From positions 1 to 41,333 of IMG/VR virus record IMGVR_UViG_3300020045_011942: a stretch of DNA of 41,333 nucleotides. One strand, 5' to 3'. This document shows, in pieces, positions 2 to 41,333 of the stretch. The DNA is from a virus. Its lineage: Duplodnaviria; Caudoviricetes. Within the stretch, counting starts at the first letter, position 1, and each line of letters begins with the position of its first letter. The notes under the pieces were generated by a model that was not told the DNA's origin, made no database searches, and saw only the letters and a program-made list of their open reading frames with translations. The position numbers and the translations under genes are program-made.

Positions 2-1234
2 CCTCTCGGAGAGAGTGACGAATCATCTGTCCTCGAAGGACAAGCGCGTCGTAATGAATTTCAAAGAATTAAGCTTGAGCAAGCAACTCGCAAAGCAGAA
101 ATGGCAGAGATGGCAGAGATGGCAGAGATGGTTGCCCCTGCGGGAGAGGAAGGTGGAGAACAAGCAGCGAAGTATCAAATGTATCTTTTTAACTATTTCG
201 ATGTTCCCCGTAAGCCATACATCTTTGCGACTATTTTTAATAATGAAAACAAGCCGATTGGACGCACGGACATGATTACTTTGTCGGCATCATTGCAGCG
301 TGGAATCGACAAGCGTAAATGCGACATCGACGAGAACGCAGAAATGGTGAACGGAATGCTCAAAGTGGACGCGACGGTGATGTCGAAAGCGGAAGCGCAG
401 CGCATTCGTTTCGAAACGAAAGGAATTATTTGGGGAAAGAATGTAAATACTGGTGTTACGCGTGAGACGGGCACACCACTTCCTCAATTCGTGTTTGAGG
501 ACATGGTGGATAGTCGTAGTGAGATCGACAATATCATGGCCGCAACTGCTGCTTTTCGTGGAGAACGACAAGGACAGGAAACGAAAGCAGGACGTATCGC
601 GCTTATTCAACAGTCATTTCAGCGTCTCAATGAGCTTGTGCAAACAACAGACTTTGTTGCACAAGAAATGTTCGCGTGGGCGATGCAACTCGCAAAGACT
701 CGATACACGGAATATCACTATGCAAAGTGGATGGGGAAGGAAGGTGCGCGCGAAGTCATTGAACTTATTCAGGACGACTTTGAAACAGGACTCGAGGTAA
801 AGGTTATCGCAGGAAAATCACTCCCGGTTGACGATGAGTTTAAATTCGAACAGGCGCAAGTGGACTTCGAAAAGGGTGCGCTTGGCCTTACGGACTATCT
901 TGAAGCGGCAAACTACGATGATGCGAAAACGAAGGCGCAGAACGCAGTCAAATATCGTCTTGCCCCTGCGGTTGCTGTCGGCATCCCAGCGGAGGAAATG
1001 CAAAAAATGAATCCTGCGCCCGAGGAGAAGCCGCCGTCAGTTTCGATCAAGTACGAAGATTTGCCGCCGGATGCCCAGGTACAACTTCTTGCGAAGATCG
1101 GAATCAATATAAACCCGGCGATGCTTGTCGCAGAAAAGATGGCAGATCAACGGAAGGAAAGAGAGAAAGACTCACTTGAGGCCGAACGCACACGAGCGGA
1201 GATGGAGAGAAAGCCAGTGGAAAAAGTTCTTTGA
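2..1234 (+). CDS. Portal protein, C-terminal part (5' truncated at window start)
   Basis: Frame is open from nt 2 (PLGESDESS...) through the listed ORF 101..1234. P22-like portal features (helical, 'FRGERQGQETKAGRIALIQQSFQRL', coiled C-terminus). Lies directly before scaffold/capsid; the N-terminal part is at the other window end after terL. Confidence 0.8.
   Translation, partial: PLGESDESSVLEGQARRNEFQRIKLEQATRKAEMAEMAEMAEMVAPAGEEGGEQAAKYQMYLFNYFDVPRKPYIFATIFNNENKPIGRTDMITLSASLQRGIDKRKCDIDENAEMVNGMLKVDATVMSKAEAQRIRFETKGIIWGKNVNTGVTRETGTPLPQFVFEDMVDSRSEIDNIMAATAAFRGERQGQETKAGRIALIQQSFQRLNELVQTTDFVAQEMFAWAMQLAKTRYTEYHYAKWMGKEGAREVIELIQDDFETGLEVKVIAGKSLPVDDEFKFEQAQVDFEKGALGLTDYLEAANYDDAKTKAQNAVKYRLAPAVAVGIPAEEMQKMNPAPEEKPPSVSIKYEDLPPDAQVQLLAKIGININPAMLVAEKMADQRKEREKDSLEAERTRAEMERKPVEKVL
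101..131 (+). repeat. 9-nt tandem repeat ATGGCAGAG x3 plus partial, encoding MAEMAEMAEM within the portal
   Basis: Read directly: atggcagag atggcagag atggcagag atgg. Confidence 0.95.
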
Positions 1235-1237
1235 CAT

Positions 1238-1379
1238 GTTTCTTTGAAGAGAGAAAGCGAGACACGCACGAATTTGAAATAAATGCTCGCCATTTCTCTT
1301 CAGGGAAACCTGAATTAAAAACATAGTACGACCAAGCAATCCGATTCAGCCGCAAGGCCAAGTTGAGGAGGGGCAGTCG
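1238..1379 (+). promoter_or_regulatory. Structured leader (two stem-loops) between portal and scaffold genes
   Basis: gtttc..tgaagaga..gcgag pairs with ctcgc..tctcttca..gaaac. A second element is closed by cgac/gtcg and contains a gcc-GCAA-ggc GNRA hairpin. Confidence 0.5.
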
Positions 1380-1390
1380 AAAAAATCGCT

Positions 1391-2098
1391 ATGATGGTAG
1401 ACGAAAGTATCGAAGTAGTTCCCAGTGAGGATAACGGTAATATTCCAGCGGAAGTTACCGACCCGACACCAAGTGAACCTACGACGACAGAAGATGCTCC
1501 CGCTAAAGAGGAGCCAGCACCACCTGCTGCGACCGAACCTGAGCTCTTTGAGCTTCCGGACGGACGAAAGGTGGATGCGGTTACACTTACGAAAGAATGG
1601 AAAGAAAACTTTCTTCCGGATTATACCCGTAAATCCCAAGCACTCGCTGCGAAGGAAACAACGATTACTAAAGTAGAAAAGAATCCAGTTGACGACCCTG
1701 AGTGGCAGCCAAAGTCGTATCAAGAACTTTTGGAAATTGCTGAAAGTCGCGTCCTTACGAAAATTGAGGAACGTGAAAAACAAGCGTTTGAACAAAAGCA
1801 AAATCTTGAAAATGAAGTGGCGTCTCAGCTCGACGCTGTAAAAAAACTAGATGCAAGCGTAAATGAGAATGCTCTCTTTCTCCATGCGACTAAGTACGGT
1901 TTTCGGGATCTCCGACAAGCGTATCAAAACATGAAAGATATGAGCGAAACGGTGAAGAAGGTACAGACAAAAACTGCTGCCGACATCGCCAAGCGCGTGG
2001 ATCCAGTCAGTGTTAAGCCAGGAGGCTCAGGAGCAAAACTCAATCCAAGCACTTTCTCAAGTGGGGTTGAGTATCTCCGTGCTCTCAAGGGACAATAA
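1391..2098 (+). CDS. Capsid scaffolding protein
   Basis: Acidic Pro/Glu-rich N-terminus, 'DYTRKSQALA' motif typical of phage scaffolds, coiled coil, position between portal and capsid. Confidence 0.8.
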   Translation: MMVDESIEVVPSEDNGNIPAEVTDPTPSEPTTTEDAPAKEEPAPPAATEPELFELPDGRKVDAVTLTKEWKENFLPDYTRKSQALAAKETTITKVEKNPVDDPEWQPKSYQELLEIAESRVLTKIEEREKQAFEQKQNLENEVASQLDAVKKLDASVNENALFLHATKYGFRDLRQAYQNMKDMSETVKKVQTKTAADIAKRVDPVSVKPGGSGAKLNPSTFSSGVEYLRALKGQ

Positions 2099-2113
2099 TT
2101 GGTCTAAAAAACT

Positions 2114-3187
2114 ATGATTTTTAACTCAGCAGTCACGACGACAACGCGCGAATTTATCGTTCCGCGTGTGTACGATCAGGTGACCACCGGCACTCCGGGG
2201 CTTATGACTTTCTTGCAAAAGAAGTTCAACGCTCCAAGTGGTGAATGGACAACTGGTACATCGTACAAGTTCGCAATTAAGTACCAGGACACCACTAACG
2301 GTGGTAACGCTGGTATCGCAGATCGTCTTGATACGGATCGTCAAAACGTCCGTGTCCAGGCAAACTTCAATCTCAAAATGACCTATAAGCCGGTTGTTGT
2401 TGCGATTGCAGAAACGACAGTAAACATGGGTGACGAACAGATCGTCAACTTGCTCGATACGGAGTTCGATTCTCAAGGCCAGTCGCTTATGAATAACCTT
2501 GCTCAGAACCTCTACACCGGCAACGGTACAGGTAATGATTGGGACTCATTGGCAAACGCAGCATCAGACTCAACTCTGTTTGCAACGTATGGCGATCTTT
2601 CTCGCTCAACTTACACCGCATGGCAGGGGTATTACCTTGCTTCAACTGGCGCATTGACGCTTGCGAAGCTTGCTACCGCTGACGATGCAGTAACCATTGG
2701 AGTAGATTCTCCGGATCTCGCCTTCACCACGAAGTCGATCTGGTCTACCTACGAGAGCTTGCTCACGCCTACGGTGCGCGCAAACTTCTCAACTGCTGGT
2801 TACCCACGCATGAATGCATGGGGCGGCGTTCCTTCAACACCTGGAAACGGTGCACAGCAAGGATTCGTTTACCTCGCATTCCGTGGTACTCCGATTGCAA
2901 AGGATGAACAGGTGCCATCAGGCAAGTTCTTCTTTGTAAACTCGAAGGGCTTCGGTTTCGTTGGCTTCAACTACCAGGACGAAAACATCATGACCGCGAA
3001 CTTCAAGCAGACAACTGACGCAGTTCCAGCAGGTGTTCCAGGTAACGTGAAATCAACTCGTGGCTTCCAGTTCCGTAAGATGATGTCTCCAGTCGATCAG
3101 TTGACCAAGGTTGGTTACTTGATCTATGCAGGTAACTTCATCGCGGTCGAGCCTCGTCTCAACGGTACGCTCGCAGGTACTACATGA
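2114..3187 (+). CDS. Major capsid protein (HK97 fold)
   Basis: 357 aa, follows scaffold; 'LAQNLYTGNGTG', 'FRGTPIAKDEQVPSGKFFFVN' and the C-terminal 'PRLNGTL' resemble HK97-fold capsid segments. Confidence 0.85.
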   Translation: MIFNSAVTTTTREFIVPRVYDQVTTGTPGLMTFLQKKFNAPSGEWTTGTSYKFAIKYQDTTNGGNAGIADRLDTDRQNVRVQANFNLKMTYKPVVVAIAETTVNMGDEQIVNLLDTEFDSQGQSLMNNLAQNLYTGNGTGNDWDSLANAASDSTLFATYGDLSRSTYTAWQGYYLASTGALTLAKLATADDAVTIGVDSPDLAFTTKSIWSTYESLLTPTVRANFSTAGYPRMNAWGGVPSTPGNGAQQGFVYLAFRGTPIAKDEQVPSGKFFFVNSKGFGFVGFNYQDENIMTANFKQTTDAVPAGVPGNVKSTRGFQFRKMMSPVDQLTKVGYLIYAGNFIAVEPRLNGTLAGTT

Positions 3188-3387
3188 GCCGTATGAGTGA
3201 AAAAATCCCTCACATGGTTGAGCAAATTATCAAGTTTTCCGATGGTACTGAGACAGTTATCAAGTACCGTGGAGTAATTGAAAATGGAATCCTTATGGAA
3301 GATCAACCAAACGTAGGTGCGGAGGCAGTTCCAGAACCAGAAGAAGTTGTGGAGGCTGCCCTAGCAGAAGAGAAAGTGGAGGAATAA
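3184..3387 (+). CDS. Small acidic hypothetical protein
   Basis: ATGA overlap with the capsid stop; 67 aa, Glu-rich tail. Confidence 0.6.
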   Translation: MSRMSEKIPHMVEQIIKFSDGTETVIKYRGVIENGILMEDQPNVGAEAVPEPEEVVEAALAEEKVEE

Positions 3388-3438
3388 TTTCCTTTTACCG
3401 CGAGATATTAAAGACTACGCGAGAAGGTATGCAAAATT

Positions 3439-4635
3439 ATGGCAATCGGAACAAAGAAGGTAGAGGATTACATTCCAGTAATCAAATATAACGAAGGCTT
3501 TTACTCGACACTGGACTTTACAGTGGCGACAGGGGCAGTAGTTACTCTTCCTTCAACAACGACCATTGGTGGTAGCGCGGTTGTAGCTTTGGGTGACATC
3601 ACTTCAAGCTCAACGACAGCAACTGCCTTCACGGTCACAAACTCTGGCATCTTCACTGGTGCTAGTGTCGTTAGCTTCGTTGCTAACAGCTTGACGACGG
3701 GAACACAATTCCTCGTCACAGCGAACGGCGTCACATCTGGTCACATGCTTAGTCTCGTTTCAACGGGAACTATCGTGACGACTGGTGATGTTCTCTCTAT
3801 CGCAGCTAACACAGCGACAACCTCAACAGGTATCGTTCGTGTGAGCGCGACCGGCCTTACGGACGGTTTTGCGATGGCGATTACCTCAGGAGGCGCGAAC
3901 CTTACAGCGAACGGAGGCGGTATCAATCTTTCTCTTGGTGCAAGCACCTTGGGAACTGGTATCTCAGTCGTTTCGACTGGAGCGATGATTACCACATCAA
4001 GCTTACTGACACTCACAGCTAACTCAGCGACTACGGCCGCTGGATTGCTGCGAATCAACGGTAACGCTTTGACGGACGGTAAAGGACTTGTCATCGCATC
4101 GTCGTCAGCAGTGATGACCTCAACGGGCCGCCTTCTTCATGTTTCCCATACGGGAAATGCTGGAGTTTCAGCGGTTCTTGCGGAAGTTTCTTCGGCGGCA
4201 GCGGATGAGACAGTCGTGTTTCAAGTATCTGCTTCGGCAGCACTTGCAGCAGGAAAAGTAGTGAACGTCTCAGGTGCGGCGGTTACAACCGGCACACTCT
4301 TGAGCGTTGCAAATGCGGATGCGTTGACGACAGGTATGATTGCTCAATTCAAGAGCAATAGTTCCGACGCAACAGCGCGTACGTTAGTGGACATTCATAA
4401 CGATCATGCTTCGGCAGTCGGTACAATTCCACTCAAGATTACCCAAGATGCTCCAACGTCAACGAACTTTAAGTTGATGATGACTCTTGGAACAATGCAG
4501 ATCTTCGTTTCTGACCAGACAAGCCCTAACACGGCGTTGACTGCGACGGAAGGATCAATCTGTTTGAACGGATCAGCCACCGGACAAGCCTTCTGGAATA
4601 CAGATGGTGCGACTGCGTGGACAGCATTAGCTTAA
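3439..4635 (+). CDS. Ser/Thr/Ala/Gly-rich virion protein with beta-solenoid-like repeats (head fibre/spike)
   Basis: Recurring ANSLTTG/ANGVTSG/ATGLTDG/GNALTDG/ADALTTG units; located in the head module. Confidence 0.6.
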   Translation: MAIGTKKVEDYIPVIKYNEGFYSTLDFTVATGAVVTLPSTTTIGGSAVVALGDITSSSTTATAFTVTNSGIFTGASVVSFVANSLTTGTQFLVTANGVTSGHMLSLVSTGTIVTTGDVLSIAANTATTSTGIVRVSATGLTDGFAMAITSGGANLTANGGGINLSLGASTLGTGISVVSTGAMITTSSLLTLTANSATTAAGLLRINGNALTDGKGLVIASSSAVMTSTGRLLHVSHTGNAGVSAVLAEVSSAAADETVVFQVSASAALAAGKVVNVSGAAVTTGTLLSVANADALTTGMIAQFKSNSSDATARTLVDIHNDHASAVGTIPLKITQDAPTSTNFKLMMTLGTMQIFVSDQTSPNTALTATEGSICLNGSATGQAFWNTDGATAWTALA

Positions 4636-4688
4636 CAAGTGTTGCTAACACAAATTGGCAAAGTTTAAGAGACGATGCCTGAAAAACT

Positions 4689-5384
4689 ATGAACCAAATT
4701 ACTTTCCAAAGCGTCTATCAGACGATTACCGCACGCGGCGAGTTTAAACTCGGCGAGCGTGGCATGACTCCTGATGGACGTGAATGGCAATTTGCTCAAT
4801 CGAGCGAAACCATTGCTAACAGTTCAGCAGTTATTCCTGCGGCCGTTGTTGATACCGACCTCTGGTCCTCGTCAACAGACAATCAAGGTCGCATCGTATA
4901 TGCGAACCGTGCTGCCAACTCGCTTACCGTTGGCGTGTACGAAGATGGTATCGGTATCGTGAACGAAGGTACTGGCGCAGGACAGACGTTCAAGATTCGC
5001 ACAAACAGTGCGACTCAGTTGACGCTCTATCCTGAAACGGCGCTTACAACCGCGCTTGCAGTTGCGGATTCAGACCTCATGTATCTCGTGATGTCGAAAG
5101 TTCGTCCTGCGGCGATTACTTCTAAGGTTCAGATGTGTCAAGGAGGCAACCAAGTTGCATTTGCTTCTGGTGATTACGGCTGGATTCTTACGAACGGAGA
5201 TGGACGCGCAGTTACGGGTGCAGCTCTCACCATCGGTGGGGGCTTCATCACTGGTGACGACACAGTAGGACAGGTTATTCCTGCGACTACTAACGTCGGC
5301 TCACTCGAACAACAGACCCTTGGTTATGCTATTACGGCATCAACCACAGATACAGGTGCTCTTGTCCGTTGGATTACACGATAG
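4689..5384 (+). CDS. Putative capsid decoration/cement protein
   Basis: N-terminal 'FKLGERGMTPDGREWQFAQ' and 'AFASGDYGWILTNG' resemble beta-tulip decoration proteins; head module position. Confidence 0.55.
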   Translation: MNQITFQSVYQTITARGEFKLGERGMTPDGREWQFAQSSETIANSSAVIPAAVVDTDLWSSSTDNQGRIVYANRAANSLTVGVYEDGIGIVNEGTGAGQTFKIRTNSATQLTLYPETALTTALAVADSDLMYLVMSKVRPAAITSKVQMCQGGNQVAFASGDYGWILTNGDGRAVTGAALTIGGGFITGDDTVGQVIPATTNVGSLEQQTLGYAITASTTDTGALVRWITR

Positions 5385-5484
5385 TGATCTGCTTTTCCCT
5401 CTCTTTTATAGGGAGGGAAGGTGCAGGACATTAGTTCTGCGACTGGAATGACAAAGCCAGTCTTACAAGTTAAGGATAAAAACT

Positions 5485-6132
5485 ATGCCACAAGCACAAG
5501 TTTCGAATCCAAATGACTTCAAAGTCGTAAAGTTCACAAACAGGAACGACTTTGGATTCACTCCTGAAATGGGCTGCATGTACGATGGCCGCCCCATCTT
5601 TGGTATTACAGGAGCTCCCGGCATCAATGGCGGGGAGAGTATCGTGCTGCCGTATCACATCGCGCAGCGTTTAGCCATTAACCTTGCAAAGATTGTTCAG
5701 TTGAGACGAGCACCGACTACGGATGCAGCGGGTATTCCAACAGGAGTTCCGCTTTGGTCTATTGAAGATCTCGAGTCGTTGAAGCAGTCTTACCTTGAGG
5801 AAATGTACTCTGAGGCAAGGCCCGTTGCGATGACGGAGACTGATAAATTGTTTGCGAGAGTTGAAGAATACAAGAAGATGGTAGATCAGCTTCTGGAAGT
5901 GAAGGGATCGACTCCACCTGTTCAGGCACCAGTTGAAGAGCCTCAAGCTCCTTCAATTCCGTCTGAAACCACAGAACCAAACCCGGGGACGGGCGCTCCT
6001 TCCAGTCCTTCTGCGGATAAAACAGGGCAAGTATTCAATGATAAGCAGGAAGTAATTGCTGCGCTTGAATCACGCGGAATCCCGCATGATAAGCGACTGC
6101 ATAAAGATAAGTTGGAATTGCTCTTGAAATAG
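5485..6132 (+). CDS. Hypothetical protein with C-terminal HeH/LEM-like helix-loop-helix
   Basis: Pro-rich linker then 'KQEVIAALESRGIPHDKRLHKDKLELLL'. Confidence 0.55.
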   Translation: MPQAQVSNPNDFKVVKFTNRNDFGFTPEMGCMYDGRPIFGITGAPGINGGESIVLPYHIAQRLAINLAKIVQLRRAPTTDAAGIPTGVPLWSIEDLESLKQSYLEEMYSEARPVAMTETDKLFARVEEYKKMVDQLLEVKGSTPPVQAPVEEPQAPSIPSETTEPNPGTGAPSSPSADKTGQVFNDKQEVIAALESRGIPHDKRLHKDKLELLLK

Positions 6133-7042: not shown

Positions 7043-7318
7043 ATGTCTGAAAATGCCTTCACAGATCAAAACTTTGTACCGACAAAGCTTGCGGTGCTGA
7101 ATACTGATACGGTGCAAGGCACGAATAAAGTTCGCATTCACCTCGACGAGCTAACGGGAGCTATGTCGGTAAACGAAAGTGACACTATTTCATTCACCAT
7201 GCAGCCGATTGACGCTCAAGACGAGAACTTCCGAGACTGCATGATGTTCGTTGGAAGTGACGGTTTAACTTATCCGTGGGTAGCTAACGCAGCGGGGGAA
7301 GTCCTCATTGACCGATAA
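7043..7318 (+). CDS. Small virion protein built from two copies of a 'DQNF/DENF' module
   Basis: AFTDQNFVP...DELTGAMSV and AQDENFRDCMMFVGSDG...GEVLID; the same module begins the next gene. Confidence 0.6.
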   Translation: MSENAFTDQNFVPTKLAVLNTDTVQGTNKVRIHLDELTGAMSVNESDTISFTMQPIDAQDENFRDCMMFVGSDGLTYPWVANAAGEVLIDR

Positions 7319-7322
7319 TTTT

Positions 7323-9362
7323 ATGGCAGAACAAGCTAAAAGAGATCAGAACTTTGTAACCTCAATGCTCTTCGTGGGGACTGATGGCGGCACGTACAAC
7401 GTGCATGGAGATGAATTGACCGGACGACTTTACGTTGACGTCGCAGGAGGCTCTGGCACCGTTACGAGCGTGTCGGTCGTCTCCGCAAATGGCTTTGCAG
7501 GAACAGTTGCAACGGCAACAACGACGCCAGCGATCACTCTTTCAACAACAGTAAATAGTCCTGTACTCGCAGGAAACGGAACAGCGATCAGTGCTGCTAC
7601 AACTACGGGATCGGGCTCGACAGTAGTTTTAAATAACTCCCCAACATTCGTTGATGATATTACCGTCGGAACGGCAGCAACAGCGACAGGATCTATTCTT
7701 TTCAAGGGGCTCACTTCGGGAACGGTTACTCTCTCAGTGGCAGATGCAGCAGGAACGTGGACATTGAAACTTCCTACGACAGATGGAGACAACTTACAAT
7801 TCTTACAGACTGATGGTGCTGGTAACACGACATGGGCTGCCCCCGCAGGAGGCGGAAACGTATCAAATACAGGTACACCAGCGAACAATCAAGTAGCCAT
7901 TTGGACAGATGCAACAACGATTGAGGGAGTCGCGGGACTTACCTTTGATGGAACAACTCTCACTACTACCGCACTCACGGTAGACAATATAACGGTTGAC
8001 TTAAACACTATTTCTTCCACGTCAGGAAACTTAAACATCACTCCGGTCGCAGGAAGCGCGATTGTGCTCGATGCAACGATAAGCATTGACGCAGGAGTCG
8101 TAACAGGAATCACATCACTTGGTGTTACTGGTACACGCGTAACCGCAGGATTCTTCGTCGATCTTACTGTAACGAATGCAATTGCTGGCTCAATCACAGG
8201 AACAGCCGCTGTTGCGACGACGGTAACGGTTGCTGACGAAGCCGCAGATACCTCATGCTTCGTAAACTTCACCACGGCGGCAACAGGAAACTTAGGCGTA
8301 AAGACGAACGCAGGACTCACCTTTAACTCGTCAACAGGGGCGCTCACTGCTACAAGCTTTGTTGGTTCAATCACAGGAAACGCTGCAACGGTTACATTCG
8401 CAAACGAAGCTACTGACACCTCATGTTTCATTGCATTCGGTACAGCGGCAACTGGTTCACTTCCTGTAAATACTAACGTAAACATGACGTTCGATTCTAG
8501 TACAGGAATTGCGACATTCGCCTCAACAGTTCTCACCACAACAGACATCAATGGAGGCACCATTGATGGAGTCACTATAGGGGGCACATCAGCAGGAAAT
8601 ATCACCGGACTTGTGATTACGGCGAATACTAGTTTCATGCCAGACGCCAATGATGGTGCCGTTCTCGGCGCATCAGGGACGGCTTTCTCGGATCTCTTCT
8701 TGGCATCGGGTGCAGTCATAAACTTCCTCGCAGGAGACGTCACAGTTACTCATTCGGCAGGAATCCTTACGGTTGCGGGATCTGGCGCGGGAGACTTGCG
8801 CGTTACGACGGCGGGTACGAACACAGCGTCTGTAGTTACAGTAGGAGGCACTCAAACACTCACTTCTAAGACACTTACCTCACCGACAATTACAACTGCA
8901 ACATTGTCTGGAGCACAGCAACTTGCAGAAAACGCGTCAATTACACTGGATCAGACGCTCTCGGCAGATGGCACTTATTCTGGAATTACGATTGCAGGAA
9001 CAGCGGGAGCAACGCTCGCATTCGGACAACTTGTTTACCTTGCCGTTGCAGACTCACGATGGGAGTTATGTGACGCGGATACTGCTGCCCTCGGATACGG
9101 AGTTCTTATCGGTATGTGTGTCTTGGCAGCAGCAGGGGACGGTTCAGCAACAACTATTCTCTTACAAGGAAATATTCGTGCAGATGCACAATTCCCTGCG
9201 CTCACTGTCGGTGCAGCCGCATACATGGGAGAAACAGCGGGCGCGATTCAAGTCGCAATCCCTACGGGAGCAGACAACACGGTTCGTGTCGTTGGTTTTG
9301 CTCTCACGGCCGATTCACTCTACTTCAATCCTTCATCAGATTCATCATCAACTGTCGCCTAG
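7323..9362 (+). CDS. Thr/Gly/Ala-rich fibre protein with C-terminal cement-like domain
   Basis: Fibre motifs (GSGTVTSVSV, LPTTDGDNLQFLQTDGAGNTTW, GTQTLTSKTLTSPTI), internal ~56-aa duplication, C-terminal 'TAGATLAFGQLVYL...VRVVGFA' domain. Confidence 0.75.
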   Translation: MAEQAKRDQNFVTSMLFVGTDGGTYNVHGDELTGRLYVDVAGGSGTVTSVSVVSANGFAGTVATATTTPAITLSTTVNSPVLAGNGTAISAATTTGSGSTVVLNNSPTFVDDITVGTAATATGSILFKGLTSGTVTLSVADAAGTWTLKLPTTDGDNLQFLQTDGAGNTTWAAPAGGGNVSNTGTPANNQVAIWTDATTIEGVAGLTFDGTTLTTTALTVDNITVDLNTISSTSGNLNITPVAGSAIVLDATISIDAGVVTGITSLGVTGTRVTAGFFVDLTVTNAIAGSITGTAAVATTVTVADEAADTSCFVNFTTAATGNLGVKTNAGLTFNSSTGALTATSFVGSITGNAATVTFANEATDTSCFIAFGTAATGSLPVNTNVNMTFDSSTGIATFASTVLTTTDINGGTIDGVTIGGTSAGNITGLVITANTSFMPDANDGAVLGASGTAFSDLFLASGAVINFLAGDVTVTHSAGILTVAGSGAGDLRVTTAGTNTASVVTVGGTQTLTSKTLTSPTITTATLSGAQQLAENASITLDQTLSADGTYSGITIAGTAGATLAFGQLVYLAVADSRWELCDADTAALGYGVLIGMCVLAAAGDGSATTILLQGNIRADAQFPALTVGAAAYMGETAGAIQVAIPTGADNTVRVVGFALTADSLYFNPSSDSSSTVA

Positions 9363-9363
9363 T

Positions 9364-9825
9364 ATGAAAATCCTCAAAGCACTCATCGAAGTCCAGCACC
9401 CAGACGCAAACAGCACGCAGTATATGGGATACCCGCAAGTATGGCTCGATAATAAGGAGAGGATTCCTGCAATTCTTTATCACTCCACTCGTGAGGATGA
9501 GATTCAGCAGGACGGAAAACTGTATCAAACAGCATTTCTCGTTGTCCCTGATGATCTAGCGGTAGAGTTATTGAAAGAAGAAAATATCACAGAGGCAGCT
9601 CGACCAGAGGTCGATTCTTTCGCAGCGAAACACTACCCAATAAAAACAATGATTAACGACCAAGATGCCGTTCTAGCCATTACCGCAAAAGCAGCTCTTG
9701 GAGAAACACTGACCAAGGAGGAGAAGGATGCGCTTGATCCTAACTCGCCAGTAAAAGGGATCATAAAAACAAAGCCATGGGTAGAGGCGATTGAAGAACA
9801 ATATGGAACCGTCGAACTCAAGTAA
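9364..9825 (+). CDS. Hypothetical protein
   Basis: ATG 9364 (MKILKALIEV...) is 1 nt after the fibre stop; the 5' part of listed ORF 8923 is a shadow frame. Confidence 0.65.
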   Translation: MKILKALIEVQHPDANSTQYMGYPQVWLDNKERIPAILYHSTREDEIQQDGKLYQTAFLVVPDDLAVELLKEENITEAARPEVDSFAAKHYPIKTMINDQDAVLAITAKAALGETLTKEEKDALDPNSPVKGIIKTKPWVEAIEEQYGTVELK

Positions 9826-20459: not shown

Positions 20460-20735
20460 ATGGAACTAATTTTATTATTGCCATTCTTGAACCATCTCGT
20501 GATGTCCGGGATCAAATGGTTTGGGAACCAGAAGTGGTTTAGTGGACAGTCTCGTCACCCTCGTCTGCAATTGGTGCTCGTTGTCTTATCGCTCTTGGGA
20601 GTTATCTCCTCGGCAGCTTTGAGCGGCGATCCGATTGATCCGGGGCGTGTATGGGATCTTGTAATGATGATATTCGATACGACCATCGTAGCGACCATAT
20701 CTCACTACTCGTACAAAGCAATAAAGAACGCGTAA
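20460..20735 (+). CDS. Small membrane protein (holin/antiholin-like)
   Basis: 2-3 hydrophobic segments, basic C-terminus, convergent with the endolysin; TACAAT -10-like site at 20422-20427. Confidence 0.55.
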   Translation: MELILLLPFLNHLVMSGIKWFGNQKWFSGQSRHPRLQLVLVVLSLLGVISSAALSGDPIDPGRVWDLVMMIFDTTIVATISHYSYKAIKNA

Positions 20736-20780
20736 AACAAAAAGCCTCGGTACGTGCGCTTACCAGAGGCTTTTTGTTTT
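20734..20780. terminator. Bidirectional intrinsic terminator
   Basis: aaaacaaaaagcctc-ggta-cgtgcgct-tacc-a-gaggctttttgtttt; A-tract and T-tract flanks; sits between convergent genes. Confidence 0.85.
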
Positions 20781-20821
20781 ATATTCGTGGCACGCAATAT
20801 TTCCCCCGCCACGAACACACG

Positions 20822-21481: not shown

Positions 21482-21540
21482 ATCTTCATCATTATACCGT
21501 ACAGAAATGCGGGTTTTGTGGAGATCCCGCGACTCCCTGT

Positions 21541-21849
21541 TTATATGCCCGTTCTTCCGAGTAAGCAGTACAGCTTCTCTGGCGAAAAACAGGCATGTGC
21601 CTTTTGACTGTCGAACTCTTCCCACTTGAAGTCGGAAGGGAACACAGCCGTCCCGTGCTTGGTGGTGATCCTCATTGAACCATCACCGAGGCGCACTACA
21701 TTGATGATGGGGGCACAATCATTCCCTCCACAGCAATGAGCTGGATAGGCGTACAATTCTCCTTCTTCTTTGTGTGCGAGGGCAACTCCTGCGGCGATGG
21801 TCAGCAACACTGCGCACAGTGTGCCGATTATCGTAAGCAGTCGTTCCAT
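21541..21849 (-). CDS. Secreted Cys-rich small protein
   Basis: Signal peptide ending ALA-H; 'YPAHCCGGNDCAP...HACF...LYCL'; AGGAG SD 6 nt before ATG. Confidence 0.75.
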   Translation of the reverse strand: MERLLTIIGTLCAVLLTIAAGVALAHKEEGELYAYPAHCCGGNDCAPIINVVRLGDGSMRITTKHGTAVFPSDFKWEEFDSQKAHACFSPEKLYCLLGRTGI

Positions 21850-21860
21850 GAGCTTCTCCT

Positions 21861-21992
21861 ATCTCCCGCTTCTTGTGCGGGGTGTCGGATTGAATGGATC
21901 TGTAAAACACAGCCCTCGAAAGGATTGTCAGGAAATACATTCCTGTATCTCCAATCCTTCAATCCAACACTCCGTGCAAGAGTGGTGGGGAT
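21861..21992. ncRNA. Long imperfect stem-loop (about 30 bp stem with two internal hairpins)
   Basis: tcttgtgcggggtgtcggattgaa pairs with ttcaatccaacactccgtgcaaga; loop holds acagccct-cgaa-aggattgt and caggaa/ttcctg hairpins. Confidence 0.6.
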
Positions 21993-22042
21993 TGTTTAAC
22001 GTCTAACCCCCAAACGACATCTCGTGCGCCTAGTGGCGAACT

Positions 22043-22258
22043 TCAGAAGCCACTGCCTGACTCCCACCAATTTGGTTTTTGTCGGGGGCGTCGGCCCTCG
22101 AGCGGTCTGCCTTCGTATGCCATATCAAAGACATTCGATTGCTTGATCCACTCGTTCGAGCATTCGTGAGAACAAAAGATTCGTTCTCCGATGTTGACGT
22201 GCGGTCGGTTGACCACGCTCACGAGCTTACTGCAAGTAGGTAACGCGCAGCGATGCAT
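22043..22258 (-). CDS. Small Zn-binding protein (CxxxxC...FCSxxC, TRASH/YHS/MYM-like)
   Basis: 'RCALPTCSK...RIFCSHECSNEW'; GGAGGT SD 5 nt before ATG. Confidence 0.7.
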   Translation of the reverse strand: MHRCALPTCSKLVSVVNRPHVNIGERIFCSHECSNEWIKQSNVFDMAYEGRPLEGRRPRQKPNWWESGSGF

Positions 22259-22291
22259 GACGTACCTCCGTTATCCCACCCACAGCTGCGT

Positions 22292-22340
22292 GAGTAGGGA
22301 GCATGAGGCAGTTTCCCTACGTGCCCCATACTCTCTACTC
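22292..22340 (-). promoter_or_regulatory. 19-bp 5' leader hairpin just downstream of a TACAAT -10-like site (22352-22357, minus strand)
   Basis: Minus strand gagtagagagtatggggca pairs with tgcctcatgctccctactc (2 G-U, 1 mismatch). Confidence 0.6.
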
Positions 22341-22398
22341 GCTACGTCTTAATTGTACTTCATAGAAAACACACACAAACTCATGCCTGTGTAGAACC

Positions 22399-22498
22399 AT
22401 CAGCACCACTGTGAGAGATTAAAGTGGAAACCAGCGACGACAATCCCCCAAGGAGAAAAAGTGACAACTAGACTTTAATCCCTCACGGTAGCGCCGAT
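22399..22498 (-). other. 26-27 bp imperfect inverted repeat/RNA hairpin
   Basis: Minus strand tcggcgctaccgtgagggattaaagt pairs with actttaatctctcacagtggtgctga (4 G-U, 1 C-A). Confidence 0.7.
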
Positions 22499-22677
22499 CA
22501 TGACTTCTTTTGTATAGGTGTAATGGTGACTGTGCAGTGGACAATTTTGTGGGTTCCTGCGCAATCCTTGATCGTTTCTTTGAGGGCGCGTGCTTCTGCT
22601 TTGGTAGCCAGGACGCCGCAAATTAGGTTGTGGCACATGACTGCGTAGTAGGTGTCCGTTCCTTTGATTGTTTTCAT
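22498..22677 (-). CDS. Hypothetical protein
   Basis: MKTIKGTDTYY...; start immediately after the upstream stop. Confidence 0.55.
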   Translation of the reverse strand: MKTIKGTDTYYAVMCHNLICGVLATKAEARALKETIKDCAGTHKIVHCTVTITPIQKKS

Positions 22678-27256: not shown

Positions 27257-27877
27257 TCATCGACTAACGCTGGCGATAGTCTTTTCTTCGTAGCGCTCAA
27301 CTCCCGGAATAACAATTCCTTTTCGTAACACTGCCTCTGCGATCTTTGTCATGTCTGGAACGAGATACTCGCGAGGAATGAGGGACTCATCCACCACGCG
27401 AACCTTTACCAGCGTGCGTGTTTGAATCTTGCCAACTGATCCGCTCGCGGATAAAGGAGCTTCACCGAGATTCTCAAGCTTTGCAATCGCTGTTTCGCCT
27501 TTCATCGTCCCTTTTTCAACGCGAGCAGCGATGCGCGCTTGCTCCTTTGCAATGCGCTCCTCTTCTTGAATCTGGAACTCAAGCATCTTTCCCTTGATTA
27601 CTTTCTTGGCTTCCGCGTGCGCTACTTCAAGTGGCTTGAATAAGTCCCGCGCAGAAGCGAGCGCGGTCATGAGTGGTCGTGTGATCTCCTCTTTCCGCTG
27701 TGTGATTGATTTTTCAATCCCCGCGATAACATGGAGGAGATCCGCACCATGATCCATATCAGTCTGCGAGACAATGGTATATGCCTCAGCTTCTCTTTGA
27801 ACACTGGTTATCTTTGTTTTATACAATGCAATCTCCTTCGGTTGAACGATTGCTGCTACTTCCTTTATCTTGGTCAT
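27257..27877 (-). CDS. Gp157/Mu Gam-like coiled-coil protein
   Basis: Long coiled coil then 'VVDESLIPREYLVPDMTKIAEAV...IPGVERYEE'. Confidence 0.65.
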   Translation of the reverse strand: MTKIKEVAAIVQPKEIALYKTKITSVQREAEAYTIVSQTDMDHGADLLHVIAGIEKSITQRKEEITRPLMTALASARDLFKPLEVAHAEAKKVIKGKMLEFQIQEEERIAKEQARIAARVEKGTMKGETAIAKLENLGEAPLSASGSVGKIQTRTLVKVRVVDESLIPREYLVPDMTKIAEAVLRKGIVIPGVERYEEKTIASVSR

Positions 27878-29050: not shown

Positions 29051-29591
29051 ACTCCCTTCATTCGCCCAAGGATGGCTCTCTTACGAAGGGAAAGAGGCAG
29101 TGCAAACGATCCCACAAAAAGCGAAAAAGATAAAAGATCTCATTCATTACTATCAGAATATCATCGACGACAATAAGGAAATTGAAGAAGAAGTTCGCTA
29201 TTCCCTCGTGAATAAGGTGCCAATGATAAATATCGAGCTTGTCGTCAATCTCGTGATGGTCATGGCTCCTGTCCATGAAGAAAAAGATCGTTTGCGCCAA
29301 CTGGAGCGCGCACTACTTTTACGAAAGAAACAAAAAGTACCGGCGGGAAGCATCACCGACGTCGATATTGAGTGTGCAAAAGCAACTCCTATTCGCTCAC
29401 TTATCACGGTACGCAAAGACGGAAAGGCAAAGTGCTTGTGGCATGACGACAAGAACCCTTCGATGCATGTGTACCCGGATCATGTGTACTGCTTCTCCTG
29501 TGCACGACACGGAGACGCAATCGACGTCACAATGGCGCAGCAAAATATCTCTTTTATTGAGGCGGTAAAAGTACTCACAAAGAAAGTATGA
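29025..29591 (+). CDS. CHC2 zinc-finger protein (primase Zn-binding domain, no TOPRIM)
   Basis: 'CLWHDDKNPSMHVY...YCFSCARHGDAID...SFIEAVKVL'. Confidence 0.85.
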   Translation: MQQKDAVDKLPSFAQGWLSYEGKEAVQTIPQKAKKIKDLIHYYQNIIDDNKEIEEEVRYSLVNKVPMINIELVVNLVMVMAPVHEEKDRLRQLERALLLRKKQKVPAGSITDVDIECAKATPIRSLITVRKDGKAKCLWHDDKNPSMHVYPDHVYCFSCARHGDAIDVTMAQQNISFIEAVKVLTKKV

Positions 29592-31158: not shown

Positions 31159-32306
31159 AAAAGCTTTATGCACACCAGCAGCGATTCATAGATAAAAACC
31201 CTAATCGCGCGCTTTTAGTCTGGGAAACCGGGACGGGCAAGACAGTAGCAGCATGTGAATGGGTAAAGAAACGAAAAGGTCGCGCGCTCGTCGTCTGTCC
31301 GAAAGGGATCGTTGAAAAGTGGAAACGTGACCTTAAAGAGTGGGGAGTAAAAGCCGACGTCGTATCCCGAGATACCGTCAAAAAAACAAACATCACTCCT
31401 TACAGCATCCTCGTCCTCGACGAAGCGCAAGACTTTGCGTCCCCACTCTTCGAGAAAGGCCGTTCACAGCGTGCGACCGTGATCTATACCGCGATTAAAA
31501 ACAACCCGAAGATGCATGTACTCTTACTCACCGCGACGCCTATTCGTTCAACGCCGTACAATATCCACACTCTTGCGTGCTACCTCGGTATTTATTGGCC
31601 GGTAAAGGAATTTCGAGATAAGTTTTTCCATCTCACCAATAAGTTCGGACGGATGCACTATGAAAAAAACAAAGGATGGCAGAAAGCAATCCGTCCATAC
31701 GTGGAAGAGATATCCGACATAGTACTCGCTCGAGACTGCGCCGACATCCCGCCACAGCGTGAACACGTCGTCACTGTTCCTTGGGACACGAAGCAAGAGG
31801 AGGAATTAAAACAGCGGTATCTCGAGCCGGCCGCTGAATGGCACGAGAGGCACCGCGCAGAGAATGGAAAAAAGAAGTTCGATGCAGTCATGCGAATAGC
31901 AAACGGATACAGAAAAGCAATTATCGTTGTGTACTACCGCTCGCAGATCGAAGAAATGGAAAAAGAAATAGGGGAAGATCGACAAGTGTTTGTCCTCCAC
32001 GGGGGAGTGAAGGACCAAGATGCCGTGATCCAGGCTGCGCGCGACGCCGACGATTGCATCTTCATCCTCCAGGCATCCATGGGAGCCGGCTTCGATGCAT
32101 CAGAGTTCTCCGTGATGATATTCGCATCAATGTCCTTCAAGTTCGTAGATCATATACAAAGCCTCGGACGCATCAAACGCCTCAACAATCTCCACGAAAA
32201 TGATTATTACTACGTCCTTGGCGGGAAGTGTGATATCTCAGTCCATCGCACAATTATGGCCGGCAATGACTTCCACCCACCGCACTATATGCTCGCCCGG
32301 CAGTAA
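31155..32306 (+). CDS. Superfamily 2 (SNF2-like) helicase
   Basis: 'ETGTGKT', 'LVLDEAQ', 'LTATP', 'QSLGRIKR'. Confidence 0.9.
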   Translation: MKKLYAHQQRFIDKNPNRALLVWETGTGKTVAACEWVKKRKGRALVVCPKGIVEKWKRDLKEWGVKADVVSRDTVKKTNITPYSILVLDEAQDFASPLFEKGRSQRATVIYTAIKNNPKMHVLLLTATPIRSTPYNIHTLACYLGIYWPVKEFRDKFFHLTNKFGRMHYEKNKGWQKAIRPYVEEISDIVLARDCADIPPQREHVVTVPWDTKQEEELKQRYLEPAAEWHERHRAENGKKKFDAVMRIANGYRKAIIVVYYRSQIEEMEKEIGEDRQVFVLHGGVKDQDAVIQAARDADDCIFILQASMGAGFDASEFSVMIFASMSFKFVDHIQSLGRIKRLNNLHENDYYYVLGGKCDISVHRTIMAGNDFHPPHYMLARQ

Positions 32307-34579: not shown

Positions 34580-34609
34580 ATAGTACTATATGGTGCATTA
34601 TATTGTCAA
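34580..34609 (-). promoter_or_regulatory. Sigma70-type leftward promoter
   Basis: TTGACA (34609-34604), 18-nt spacer, TACTAT (34585-34580) on the minus strand; overlapped by GTGCATWATAT repeats. Confidence 0.6.
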
Positions 34610-34692
34610 TAGCGTGCATAATATAACACTGTATTATGACAGAAAGTGGGGGGTTTTGTCAAAAGAGCGTGGCTCAACAGAGCCATATTTTG

Positions 34693-34831
34693 AAAACACA
34701 TACCCCCGTTCTGGGGGGGGTATATCTACTATTGATTATTGATTAAATTTCTTCTTCTTATTTAAAGAAGTAAGATACCTTATAGGACTGGGGTATGTGT
34801 TTTGAGTCCGAAAAATTCAAAACACATCCCC
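34693..34831. repeat. Three copies of AAAACACAT(A)CCCC in alternating orientation around an AT-rich core
   Basis: 34693-34706 (+), 34790-34803 (-), 34819-34831 (+, 1-nt deletion). Confidence 0.8.
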
Positions 34832-34854
34832 TATTTTTATGATATTCTCTTGGA

Positions 34855-37165: not shown

Positions 37166-37458
37166 AGATCACGAGGCAAGACGTAGAGAAGTACGTGGCA
37201 GGACGGCCGATGAGTGAGGTACAGGTGGACGGCATCCCGGACGGCTTTGCGTTCAAGTATGCTGATGTGAATATTGGGGGAAAGGAAGTCCTCGGATCAT
37301 TGATTGCGTACGTGCCGCTGAGTAATTGGAAGGCGGTGTTTGCACAGGGAGGAGATTATAAAAAATTAGTTGAACTCTATAACAAAGAGCTTTATGCAAT
37401 ACAAAGAAGTACTACAGGGGCACCATGCGCGACAGCGAGTGAAGGATGGGATCGATAA
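37162..37458 (+). CDS. Hypothetical protein between groES and groEL
   Basis: ATGA overlap with groES; 3' end overlaps groEL by 65 nt. Confidence 0.65.
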   Translation: MKITRQDVEKYVAGRPMSEVQVDGIPDGFAFKYADVNIGGKEVLGSLIAYVPLSNWKAVFAQGGDYKKLVELYNKELYAIQRSTTGAPCATASEGWDR

Positions 37459-38968
37459 AGCAACTAAAGCGGTCGCCCCAACGCTAGGCGCGGTCGGTAT
37501 GACGGCTCTCATTGAGTGGCCGGGCTTGGACCCAATCGTCGCTGACGATGGTGTCACTATTCTCAAAAGCCTCGAATTTGAGGATGCACACGAGAACATG
37601 GGGCTTTATATGCTACGAAAAGCAGCTATCCGCACCAGTACGGAGGGCGGAGACGGTACAGCAACGACGACAGTTTTGACGCAAGCGCTCGTTCAAGAGG
37701 CATTTAAGGAGATCGCGAACGACTCTTCGAAGACTCGCGAGGTGAAAGAACGGCTACAAAAGGGATTAGAAGAAGCGCTTGCTGCGCTCAAAGAGATTAA
37801 ACGAGAGGTGACGGAGGACGATATCGAGAAGATTGCAGCTATTTCCTCGCTCGATCCAGAGGTCGCCCGGCTTATCGCGGAAGTCATTAAGGATGTTGGC
37901 ATCGACGGGGTGGTGACGGTGGAGCGTGGAGCACAGCTTGGATATTCGAAAGAGGTGGTGAAGGGCGCGCGCTTCGATAAGGGGCTTATTTCGCCATTCT
38001 TCATTAACGATCATGAGCATAAACAGACCGTGCTCGAGGACGCGTACATCGTCCTCGTGGATCGTAAGATCAGTACGAACGAACAGATACTTTCACTCCT
38101 CAATTCAATCGGGACGGGAAAGGATATCCTTTTCATCGCCACGGACGTAGACAGTGTGGCGCTCGGAACACTCGCACAGAACGCGGTAAATAAGGTCGCG
38201 GATATTGCGTGTGTACGAAACCCTTATACAGCGAGTCCTTCCCGGGACTTCCTCTTCGACATGGCTGCGCTCACAGGCGCGACAGTAATTAGTGAGGAAA
38301 TGGGAATGATGCTCGATAAAGCGACGGTCGAAGTGTGCGGTCGGGCGGAGAAGGTTATCGTCACGCGAGACACGACAACGATCATTGGTGGAAAGGGAGA
38401 TCCAACAGAGCGGATTGCAGCTATTCAAAAGGAGATCGAGGGAACGACGTCGGAATACCAGAAAGGAATGCTCGAAGATCGTCTCGCGGCACTCACAGGG
38501 GGGATTGGTGTTATCCGTGTCGGAGCGTATACGGACCCAGAGTTTAATGCCAAAAAGTACAAGTTCGAGAATGGAATCAATGCGACGCAAGCGGCGTTGC
38601 AGGAAGGGATTATTATCGGAGGAGGAGCCGCGCTCGCGAAGATCAGTGAAGGTGTCCTCGATCCTATGTTCCAAAAGTCTCTTATCGCACCTATTAAGCA
38701 AATGGCGGAGAATGCCGGGCTTGAGTGGTATCAAGTGCTTGAGATGGTACGCGGCACTGAGACGAACGAGTTCGGATCAGAGGTGCAAACAAACATTGGC
38801 TTCAACTTTGTTTCGTGTGAGCCAGTAGACATGTTCGACGCCGGCATCATTGACCCATTCAAAGTGACCCGCCTTGCGCTTGAGAGCGCAGTGTCGATTG
38901 CATCTATGCTTGTTGGTATGGAGACGGCCATTACCGTTAAAAAAGATGAAAAAAAAGGAGAAGAGTAA
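37394..38968 (+). CDS. groEL: Chaperonin GroEL (group I, divergent ATP site)
   Basis: 'PTLGAVG', 'DDGVTI', 'GDGTATTTVL', 'GARFDKGLISPFF', 'RLAALTGGIGVIRVGA', 'AGIIDPFKVTRLALESAVS'; no GGM tail. Confidence 0.97.
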   Translation: MQYKEVLQGHHARQRVKDGIDKATKAVAPTLGAVGMTALIEWPGLDPIVADDGVTILKSLEFEDAHENMGLYMLRKAAIRTSTEGGDGTATTTVLTQALVQEAFKEIANDSSKTREVKERLQKGLEEALAALKEIKREVTEDDIEKIAAISSLDPEVARLIAEVIKDVGIDGVVTVERGAQLGYSKEVVKGARFDKGLISPFFINDHEHKQTVLEDAYIVLVDRKISTNEQILSLLNSIGTGKDILFIATDVDSVALGTLAQNAVNKVADIACVRNPYTASPSRDFLFDMAALTGATVISEEMGMMLDKATVEVCGRAEKVIVTRDTTTIIGGKGDPTERIAAIQKEIEGTTSEYQKGMLEDRLAALTGGIGVIRVGAYTDPEFNAKKYKFENGINATQAALQEGIIIGGGAALAKISEGVLDPMFQKSLIAPIKQMAENAGLEWYQVLEMVRGTETNEFGSEVQTNIGFNFVSCEPVDMFDAGIIDPFKVTRLALESAVSIASMLVGMETAITVKKDEKKGEE

Positions 38969-40512: not shown

Positions 40513-40734
40513 ATGCCCCCTAAAATTGAAGTTGCCGTATACATGCCGGACGCTGAGGCAAGACAATTTTTGCTATTCAAGAAACATTTCGACGTGTTCG
40601 AGGTTCTTGTAGCGGCGAATGTTTTTGACCAAAAGAATGCTTCGATAACACTCAATTTCGATAATCACGGGATTCTCCAGGTGGTGGAGCGAAAGGATCG
40701 GTTGTACTCGCGAAGACATTCACTATCCACATAG
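40513..40734 (+). CDS. Hypothetical protein between terL and portal
   Basis: MPPKIEVAVY...; starts 1 nt after the terL stop. Confidence 0.65.
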   Translation: MPPKIEVAVYMPDAEARQFLLFKKHFDVFEVLVAANVFDQKNASITLNFDNHGILQVVERKDRLYSRRHSLST

Positions 40735-40794
40735 GAAATCTTCGGTGAAAATTCATGGTATAGTTTTGGTACATAAATGCCCAATCCAAACAAC

Positions 40795-40829
40795 GGAGGG
40801 CCGTCCCATGTAGGGCGGCTCTCCTTTTT
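40795..40829 (+). terminator. Intrinsic terminator-like hairpin immediately before the portal start
   Basis: ggagggccgtcc-catgta-gggcggctctcc-ttttt. Confidence 0.7.
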
Positions 40830-40832
40830 GAT

Positions 40833-41333
40833 ATGAAAATTAACTTCGAAGAATTTAAAGATCCAGACCTCGTAAAACTTATTGATAGTCGATGGGAATC
40901 TTCGAAGGACGTGTGGAATGACATCGAACGAATCTATAAAACAAATACCGCAATTTACGAGAACCACGCCGAGTGGCTCGACTTGTTGCCGGAACGACGT
41001 CGTAACTATGCAGTCCAGGCCAATCGTATCTTCGTCAACATGGAGTCGGTTATCAATGCGGTGATCGCAAATCCACCAGGACTCAACATATTACCGAGTA
41101 GAGACGGAGAAGTGGCGCAAGAATTTGCACGAAAGCTCGAGAGTTATCTTCGTAAGAAGTTCTTGGATCTCAATACGAAAGAAACAATGCGCATGGGACT
41201 GCGCAATCTCTACTTCGCGCGTCTCTTGGTGATAAAGCCATTTTGGAACCCTGCTATCAATGACTTTGATTTCCAGTCGATTGATCCGCGCAAGGTTCGT
41301 TTTGGTAAGTTCGCGCGCAAGGAACAGGATTCA
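40833..41333 (+). CDS. Portal protein, N-terminal part (runs off the window end; absent from ORF track)
   Basis: Open for 167 codons: MKINFEEFKDPDLVKLIDSRWESSKDVW...QANRIFVNMESVINAVIANPP...IDPRKVRFG; follows terL. Confidence 0.8.
   Translation, partial: MKINFEEFKDPDLVKLIDSRWESSKDVWNDIERIYKTNTAIYENHAEWLDLLPERRRNYAVQANRIFVNMESVINAVIANPPGLNILPSRDGEVAQEFARKLESYLRKKFLDLNTKETMRMGLRNLYFARLLVIKPFWNPAINDFDFQSIDPRKVRFGKFARKEQDS

Follow-up and report, generated by a model that had tools for sequence, protein, structure and literature searches.

Why does a phage whose genes are hardly ever preceded by a Shine-Dalgarno (SD) sequence carry two adjacent small genes that both have a canonical one, and for which ribosomes might these genes be written? 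The window, that is, the whole stretch of DNA analysed here, is a complete virus record of 41,333 nt that encodes a portal protein, capsid protein, terminase, chaperonin, helicase, holin and M23 peptidase. Scoring of its start codons for anti-SD pairing confirmed that SD sites are rare genome-wide: 3 of the 56 ORFs reach −6 kcal/mol or better (median −0.9), with starts at 22258 (−10.9), 21849 (−7.0) and 13465 (−7.7, with a long spacing). The first two are the genes of the unit, and the initial annotation's view that it follows a translation grammar different from that of the rest of the phage is thereby borne out.

All of the parts that the initial annotation had named were found on the minus strand, in the places assigned to them, when the sequence was re-read. 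Along that strand, a long hairpin (22399..22498) with 27-nt arms that are 81% complementary (z −7.0; 0 of 200 shuffles as good) starts at the upstream gene's stop codon. Since it lies upstream of a −10-like TACAAT hexamer (22352..22357), a putative promoter part identified from its sequence, this hairpin probably marks where the preceding transcript ends, or some other boundary, and would not be part of the predicted mRNA. At the predicted 5′ end is a hairpin of ∼20 bp (22292..22340; z −4.2), followed by the strongest SD site in the window, GGAGGT (22264..22269), which is 5 nt before the ATG at 22258 of a 71-residue Cys/His peptide (22043..22258), a predicted zinc finger (C-x4-C...C-x3-C). The intergenic region (21861..22042) is folded into a branched stem-loop with arms at 21871-21894 and 21958-21981 (branched stem 21845-21990; z −5.0) and adjoins a second SD site, AGGAG (21856..21860), 6 nt before the ATG at 21849 of a 102-residue Cys-rich protein with a predicted signal peptide (21541..21849). 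The closing hairpin of the initial annotation is present (21501..21540), but it is weak (z −2.0, equalled by 5 of 200 shuffles) and has no U-run, and so is not a clear terminator. The downstream boundary of the unit is the TATAAT of the next gene (21491..21496, minus strand), which encodes the M23 peptidase; its ATG at 21481 is 9 nt past the hexamer and has no SD. At 20733-20781, between converging genes, lies an inverted repeat of 16 perfectly paired bp with runs of A and T, likely a bidirectional terminator.

Predicted folding of the RNA extends through the unit as a whole. The description of the unit as framed by hairpins was right as to the hairpins but understated the extent of folding, as the whole of 21495-22345 (851 nt, coding regions included) folds with z −8.2 (0 of 20 shuffles as good), the part from 21845 to 22345 also gives z −8.2, and neither ORF is matched in folding by any of its 40 synonymous-codon shuffles (z −2.6 and −4.0). 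When 10,551 overlapping 800-nt stretches from one strand of 28 phage genomes were ranked by predicted folding, with correction for composition, 21701-22501 came first (mean z −3.5; 0.1% quantile −2.7). Single strong hairpins are frequent elsewhere in the window, and the peculiarity of the unit is its unbroken folded run rather than any single hairpin. A known RNA family, a tRNA or a tmRNA was ruled out as its identity, as the window gave no Rfam match at the gathering score (three chance-level rows at E 2-8) and no match in tRNA and tmRNA searches. Other strongly folding stretches of the window are 27601-27750, 29201-29350, 31301-31450, 34601-34850, 40701-40850 and 1200-5550, and in many relatives, too, the region directly following the capsid gene ranks among the most strongly folded. 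Strongly folded stretches of the relatives, some of them without called genes, include G011:14701-15501, G049:37801-38601, G015:5901-6701, G022:24401-25201 and G046:37001-37801.

The 71-residue peptide gave a sub-threshold match to the Pfam family zf-FLZ (FCS/TRASH-type zinc fingers; 15.1 bits, cut-off 23.4, E 0.016), and its best Atlas score was 0.89, the zinc-finger matches again being sub-threshold. Its one viral match (L002) was set aside, as it lies in a different context. The 102-residue protein consists of an N-terminal hydrophobic helix, the predicted signal peptide, and a small Cys-rich beta domain, and belongs to a family with the motif H..YP..CC...DC..TTKHG..HAC..C, in which H26, C39 and C40 are invariant and D44, C45, H85, C87 and C95 nearly so. 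Its AlphaFold model (pLDDT 90) had no Foldseek match at E 0.001, and a weak likeness to OB-type barrels, given by the best VIA-align match (Z 3.8), was discounted; Pfam, PHROGs and fold searches assigned no function to the family. Word-indexed protein searches returned the protein itself or nothing, and the family was recovered by a full HMMER search, which gave 210 matches at E 0.001 that include some unrelated repeat proteins (best 53% identical). A family member matched 94 plasmid records, all from genera of the Rhizobiaceae and 86 of them from Sinorhizobium, in keeping with the earlier attribution of the protein to an Alphaproteobacteria-type family. The family was not found in 401 genomes of the phylum Patescibacteria (positive control 2/2), and a family protein (P0003) had no tblastn match in 50,697 phage records. 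A second secreted-family scan returned three loci, all of them already known.

Does the pair exist elsewhere? A pattern scan for the Cys protein gave 25 viral stretches, 13 of which are true family members, and a zinc peptide lies upstream of the Cys gene in 1 of 10 inspected viral loci. This locus, L017, belongs to a second SD-less phage, G001 (median −0.1), which has the same gene order with both genes SD-led and shares no protein with the window beyond the pair. The two zinc peptides are 29% identical (E 2e-7). In G001 the leader of the unit is folded (z −4.3), and the unit terminates in a hairpin followed by GTATACT. It folds overall at z −5.6, and no other stretch of that genome ranks higher; its zinc ORF taken alone does no better than codon shuffles (z +0.7). 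The two units have no blastn similarity and their hairpins show no sequence conservation. The 9-mer TACAGGAAT occurs within the long stem of both (window 21940-21948 and L017 ∼3118-3126, both on the minus strand), which may be chance. Rfam gave one row at E 2 in G001 and, in seven related loci, solely a tRNA. At the other Cys loci the gene stands alone, mostly in SD-using contexts that include several Alphaproteobacteria-like phage contigs; the pair was found in 0 of the 9 other inspected viral loci and in 0 of 5 metagenome loci, these five being the true matches among 20 in a metagenome pattern scan. The region upstream of one stand-alone Cys gene (L026) is folded (z −6.7). A simple recent import, which the initial annotation had offered as one explanation, is not supported as the main one: no near-identical donor DNA was found in the 50,697 phage records, the best relative of the Cys protein is 53% identical, and the pair recurs in a second SD-less phage.

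At E 1e-20, 583 relatives of the window's capsid protein were found, and the best 120 of these 583 are 83-95% identical. The 26 of 68 capsid relatives that were fetched for comparison are all SD-poor, and across 28 phage genomes 75 of 1579 ORFs have anti-SD pairing of −6.5 or better. A search of 48 of the 68 loci, together with two bins, found the Cys gene in none of the 48 relatives, 21 of which are at least 90% complete (control 2/2). Several other features of these phages may be recorded. The window encodes a phage GroEL-type chaperonin (37370-38968), as do relatives and a TM7 phage; a tail-like gene at 7308-9825 consists of overlapping long plus-strand frames (7308-9362 and 8923-9825), with a possible frameshift or internal start; and TGAAA occurs 4-10 nt before ATG 41 times versus 17 expected in 1229 genes of the 28 phage genomes, an enrichment seen in the phages and not in anti-SD-less chromosomes.

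Adjacent SD-led gene pairs are clustered in these phages, with 17 pairs in 31 phage sequences compared with a mean of 5.8 and a maximum of 13 in 2000 shuffles, a count by an automatic caller that missed the window's own pair. Inspection by eye revealed mini-operons in 8 of 26 related phages (G011, G016, G019, G022, G034, G038, G041 and G048). These consist of a −10 box, two to five small SD-led ORFs and an end hairpin, which is followed by a T-run and is clearer than in the window unit. The ORFs encode CxxC zinc peptides and, in most operons, a signal-peptide protein. Their SD sites are kept even at overlapping stop and start codons, and over the class as a whole, the window and G001 included, SD sites persist across 29-57% protein identity. 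The cargo families recur and are shuffled between operons, with no Pfam match above cut-off. One of them, zinc family A, with which the 71-residue peptide aligns loosely, was found by scanning on nine viral contigs, seven of them new and all nine SD-poor (median start score −2.9 to +0.1), and family-A operons often stand directly after peptidase and holin genes. Codon use sets the operons apart from the other small genes of their carriers: GC3s is raised in all 10 phages compared (by 0.17 on average; 0.56 versus 0.49 in the window), the share of ATA is 0.10 versus 0.37 and that of TTA/CTA 0.20 versus 0.44, and 18 of 30 operon genes end in TGA compared with 87 of 408 others. Operon GC3s also tracks the carrier genome in part (0.34 to 0.90), which suggests long residence. 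The window unit, in which each ORF is SD-led in an SD-less genome and a zinc peptide is joined to a signal-peptide protein, very probably belongs to this recurring class of SD-led phage mini-operons.

Most of the related operons open with a two-helix leader that has an A-rich bulge, followed by a word that we take to resemble boxA and then by the first SD. The leader RNA was located at L190:5930-6003, L191:5846-5919, L195:5805-5882, L197:4674-4754, L166:17467-17545, L156:4567-4646 and L196:5929-6001, and the four loci scanned against Rfam (L191, L195, L196 and L197) gave no match. On a plain alignment, all nine predicted pairs of the leader show double-sided change, with a consensus energy of merely −2.7; on a model-fitted alignment, 81% of cells pair versus 54% after shuffling, a figure that is tilted in favour of the model. 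Beyond its nine training sequences, the leader model (R1) matched the sequence ahead of a zinc-peptide frame in L192 (E 2e-4) and the start of the G011 operon (E 0.03), with three more putative matches at E 0.02-1.7. It gave nothing below E 0.2 in the TM7 phage or in the Patescibacteria genome G229, and it matched neither the window nor the G001 unit. Likewise, the boxA-like word stands before all 8 of the related operons compared with 64 of 1167 other starts, and is absent at 3 of 3 starts of the window and G001 units. Thus, with neither leader nor boxA-like word, these two units are a variant of the class with a longer folded RNA. In addition, a long repeat-containing leader precedes one SD operon (L193:5660-6000), and a tRNA gene lies on the opposite strand just after another (L197:5669-5740). 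Whichever explanation of the SD sites holds, the phage mini-operons make up a class that had no name, with a leader RNA that had no annotation.

Which cells these phages infect bears directly on whether the SD sites can be read there. Among annotated phages, the best match of the window capsid is a TM7 (Patescibacteria) phage, at 27.6% identity. The capsid gene is contained in four genome bins, with labels that include Scalindua, Saccharibacteria and Ignavibacteriaceae; the bin contigs look like binned phage DNA, and no host is fixed by them. The M23 peptidase, tried as a host marker, gave two weak matches in the 401 Patescibacteria genomes. The distance from the −10 box to the ATG peaks at 6 nt both in the phages and in Patescibacteria, which is a mark of leaderless messages, and the phage start context (−1 to −15) correlates at 0.85 with that of anti-SD-less Patescibacteria genomes, at 0.47 with anti-SD-bearing ones and at 0.21 with the TM7 phage, in sets that are small and unequal (686, 213 and 41 genes). 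From such sequence features, the phages likely infect anti-SD-less Patescibacteria.

Patescibacteria differ in this respect. In PMC9297842, the anti-SD motif is given as present in 48% of Parcubacteria and as missing mostly in a group that lacks uL1. In our phylum-wide sample, CCUCC is kept at every 16S end that could be read (46 of 46, from 50 sequences whose choice by high model score biases the sample), and all 27 16S ends of one batch contain ACCTCC. Family-A-like genes, on the other hand, led to genomes without the motif. Three matches were obtained in the 401 genomes, of which those in the chromosomes G229 and G349 are real and SD-led and that in G325 is spurious. The 16S of G229 has no anti-SD, and neither do 29 of 29 16S ends read in its order, in which 30 of 44 matches were examined and one (G490) was dropped as not being a 16S end; the eukaryote-like rRNA matches of G050 were ignored. 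A family-A-like gene in G620 has a weak AGGA. Five profile matches to family A were obtained within the order, of which those in G622 and G562 are other Cys-repeat proteins and that in G636 is spurious. In 26 of 30 16S 3′ ends (L253, L278-L307), a conserved TTC(A/C)A tail stands in the place of the anti-SD, and about half have a complementary word just downstream, like the CCTCCT/AAGGAG of normal operons. However, an orthogonal SD that pairs UUGAA with a UUUCAA tail was rejected, since it shows no peak in anti-SD-less genomes (8 versus 10.5 expected).

SD sites are nevertheless enriched in the genomes that lack the anti-SD. AGGAG/GGAGG lies 4-10 nt before ATG 26 times in 357 genes of G229 (317 kb) versus 3.7 expected, and 23 times versus 3.3 expected in 429 genes from segments of 10 further genomes (G490 included), taken from the contig bearing the match, with none in 3 of the 10. 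For the anti-SD-less set used in the start-context comparison, the count is 42 in 686 genes versus 6.0 expected, with a spacing peak that is sharp at 5-7 nt. The SD-led genes of G229 are mostly orphan and GC3-richer, and are dense, with a zinc-family relative among them, at G229:C1 ∼83,500-97,700 (L266). In anti-SD-less genomes, some of the genes behind an SD have the look of ordinary enzymes acquired by import, so that the peak can be a relic. Anti-SD-bearing genomes contain many small SD-led genes (39 versus 3.1 expected in 213 genes), and in the phage genes as a pooled set the SD peak is weak (25 versus 18).

Our tentative proposal is that the SD-less phage carries the unit as a moron-like operon whose message is addressed to ribosomes other than those of the infected cell, probably to those of the host's host. 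Transcription from the TACAAT site would yield a short RNA, stabilised by its extensive folding, and this RNA or the DNA would reach a second cell, most plausibly the basibiont on which the infected cell would live. There, both SD sites would be used by the basibiont ribosomes; the zinc peptide would alter that cell from within its cytoplasm, and the signal-peptide Cys protein would be exported to a Gram-negative periplasm. We know of no route of transfer from the infected cell to the second cell. The initial annotation had raised translation in a second organism as a speculation, and a likely anti-SD-less host group and the SD peaks in such genomes support it indirectly. The sequence evidence extends to the translation signals, the recurrence and the anti-SD-less context, and every later step is an inference. 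Several observations weigh against the proposal: the CCUCC kept in the phylum-wide sample, the possible relic origin of the SD peak, its weakness over all phage genes, the window and G001 units having neither leader nor boxA-like word, the unremarkable folding of the G001 zinc ORF and the folded region upstream of the solitary Cys gene in L026. It is doubtful, though conceivable, that anti-SD-less Patescibacteria and their phages more generally keep genes that their own ribosomes are unable to read through SD pairing and that are translated in the bacterial host on which they live, and that the window RNA crosses two cell boundaries and reprograms the host's host.

Other readers of the SD sites can be envisaged. 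The infected cell might be a Patescibacterium that keeps its anti-SD and translates in two modes, with most genes leaderless or coupled and a minority SD-led; the operon would then be an early, strongly expressed host-takeover unit, translated in the infected cell, whose boxA-like site and hairpins serve antitermination and stability. This explanation is possible but rather unlikely. It agrees with the CCUCC retained in the phylum-wide sample, with the small SD-led genes of anti-SD-bearing genomes and with the boxA-like word before every related operon; yet the phage start context is nearer that of anti-SD-less genomes, the zinc-family relatives are located in an anti-SD-less order, and a Rhizobiales-type Cys protein not found in the 401 Patescibacteria genomes is left unexplained. 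It is quite improbable that a factor other than rRNA, such as a CsrA-like protein, a ribosomal protein or a phage factor, reads GGAG in an infected anti-SD-less cell and that the operon is translated or regulated there. CsrA-family proteins do bind GGA words near starts, and the SD peak does exist in anti-SD-less genomes, but its sharp spacing is that of true SD pairing, and pairing with the replaced 16S tail, as noted, gives no peak.

The SD sites might instead not be read at all. Repeated imports from SD-using phages of ordinary bacteria, with the SD sites and codon use as relics and the genes silent or translated independently of SD, would fit the solitary Cys gene of several SD-using, Alphaproteobacteria-like phage contigs, its absence from all 48 capsid relatives searched and the imported-looking SD genes of anti-SD-less genomes. 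We consider this improbable, because the zinc and Cys genes were found paired in the two SD-less phages and at none of the 9 other viral and 5 metagenome loci inspected, family A turned up on SD-poor contigs alone (9 of 9), the SD sites have persisted through protein divergence, operon GC3s suggests long residence and the leader shows double-sided changes. That two ordinary small genes merely happen to lie between hairpins is hardly credible: single strong hairpins are common in the window, but the unit contains the most folded of the scanned stretches, its gene pair recurs in G001 and SD clustering exceeds that of every shuffle. The folding rank and the clustering largely refute chance.

New here are the class of phage operons, the leader RNA that goes with it and the SD peak of genomes that lack the anti-SD. 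No description of such operons or SD peaks was found in a search of chiefly open-access full texts, and the available portions of PMC6851277, PMC9723584 and PMC12641178 contain nothing on such SD-led operons. Whether and how Patescibacteria phages influence symbioses is described as unknown in PMC13059738. As a marker that needs nothing but sequence, SD-led islands in SD-less, likely anti-SD-less genomes point to candidate cross-cell effectors; that SD peaks occur where the anti-SD is missing holds under the rival explanations too.

Several known systems share some of these features. The TM7 phage DolZOral124_53_65 (MG269973.1) is of similar size and shares portal, capsid, adaptor and chaperonin at 23-29% identity, but it uses SD genome-wide (24 of 57 genes, median −5.6) and hence has no contrasting island. 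SD-less Bacteroidia reportedly have an occluded anti-SD and an SD-led rpsU, and so resemble the present case in having few SD-led genes in an SD-less genome; however, they keep the anti-SD and have the SD on one autoregulated gene, whereas the order of G229 has lost it and its SD genes are variable cargo. The early host-takeover regions of SPO1/T5-type phages are chains of small genes with strong SD sites and their own promoters, and resemble the unit with its small SD-led genes behind a putative promoter. These regions belong to SD-using phages and act on the infected cell, and signal-peptide Cys-rich cargo is not known as a hallmark of them. The secreted Cys-rich proteins of Rhizobiaceae plasmids and phages have the motif family in common with the 102-residue protein, but there the gene is alone, in SD-using DNA and with no zinc-peptide partner, whereas that of the window is paired in an SD-less genome.

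The unit also resembles phage morons, the accessory units with their own promoter and terminator found in lambdoid and other tailed phages, although it has no clear terminator. Like a moron, the unit has a −10-like site and a weak end hairpin of its own, is patchily present (its Cys gene in 0 of 48 capsid relatives), deviates in composition (GC3s 0.56 versus 0.49, and higher in 10 of 10 phages) and, as a class, often lies beside lysis genes. Classic morons, however, use the normal translation signals of the host, whereas the unit uses signals that its genome avoids and that the ribosome of the likely host would be unable to pair with, and its whole message is predicted to be folded. If its RNA is indeed translated in a second cell, it would be a categorically new kind of phage unit.
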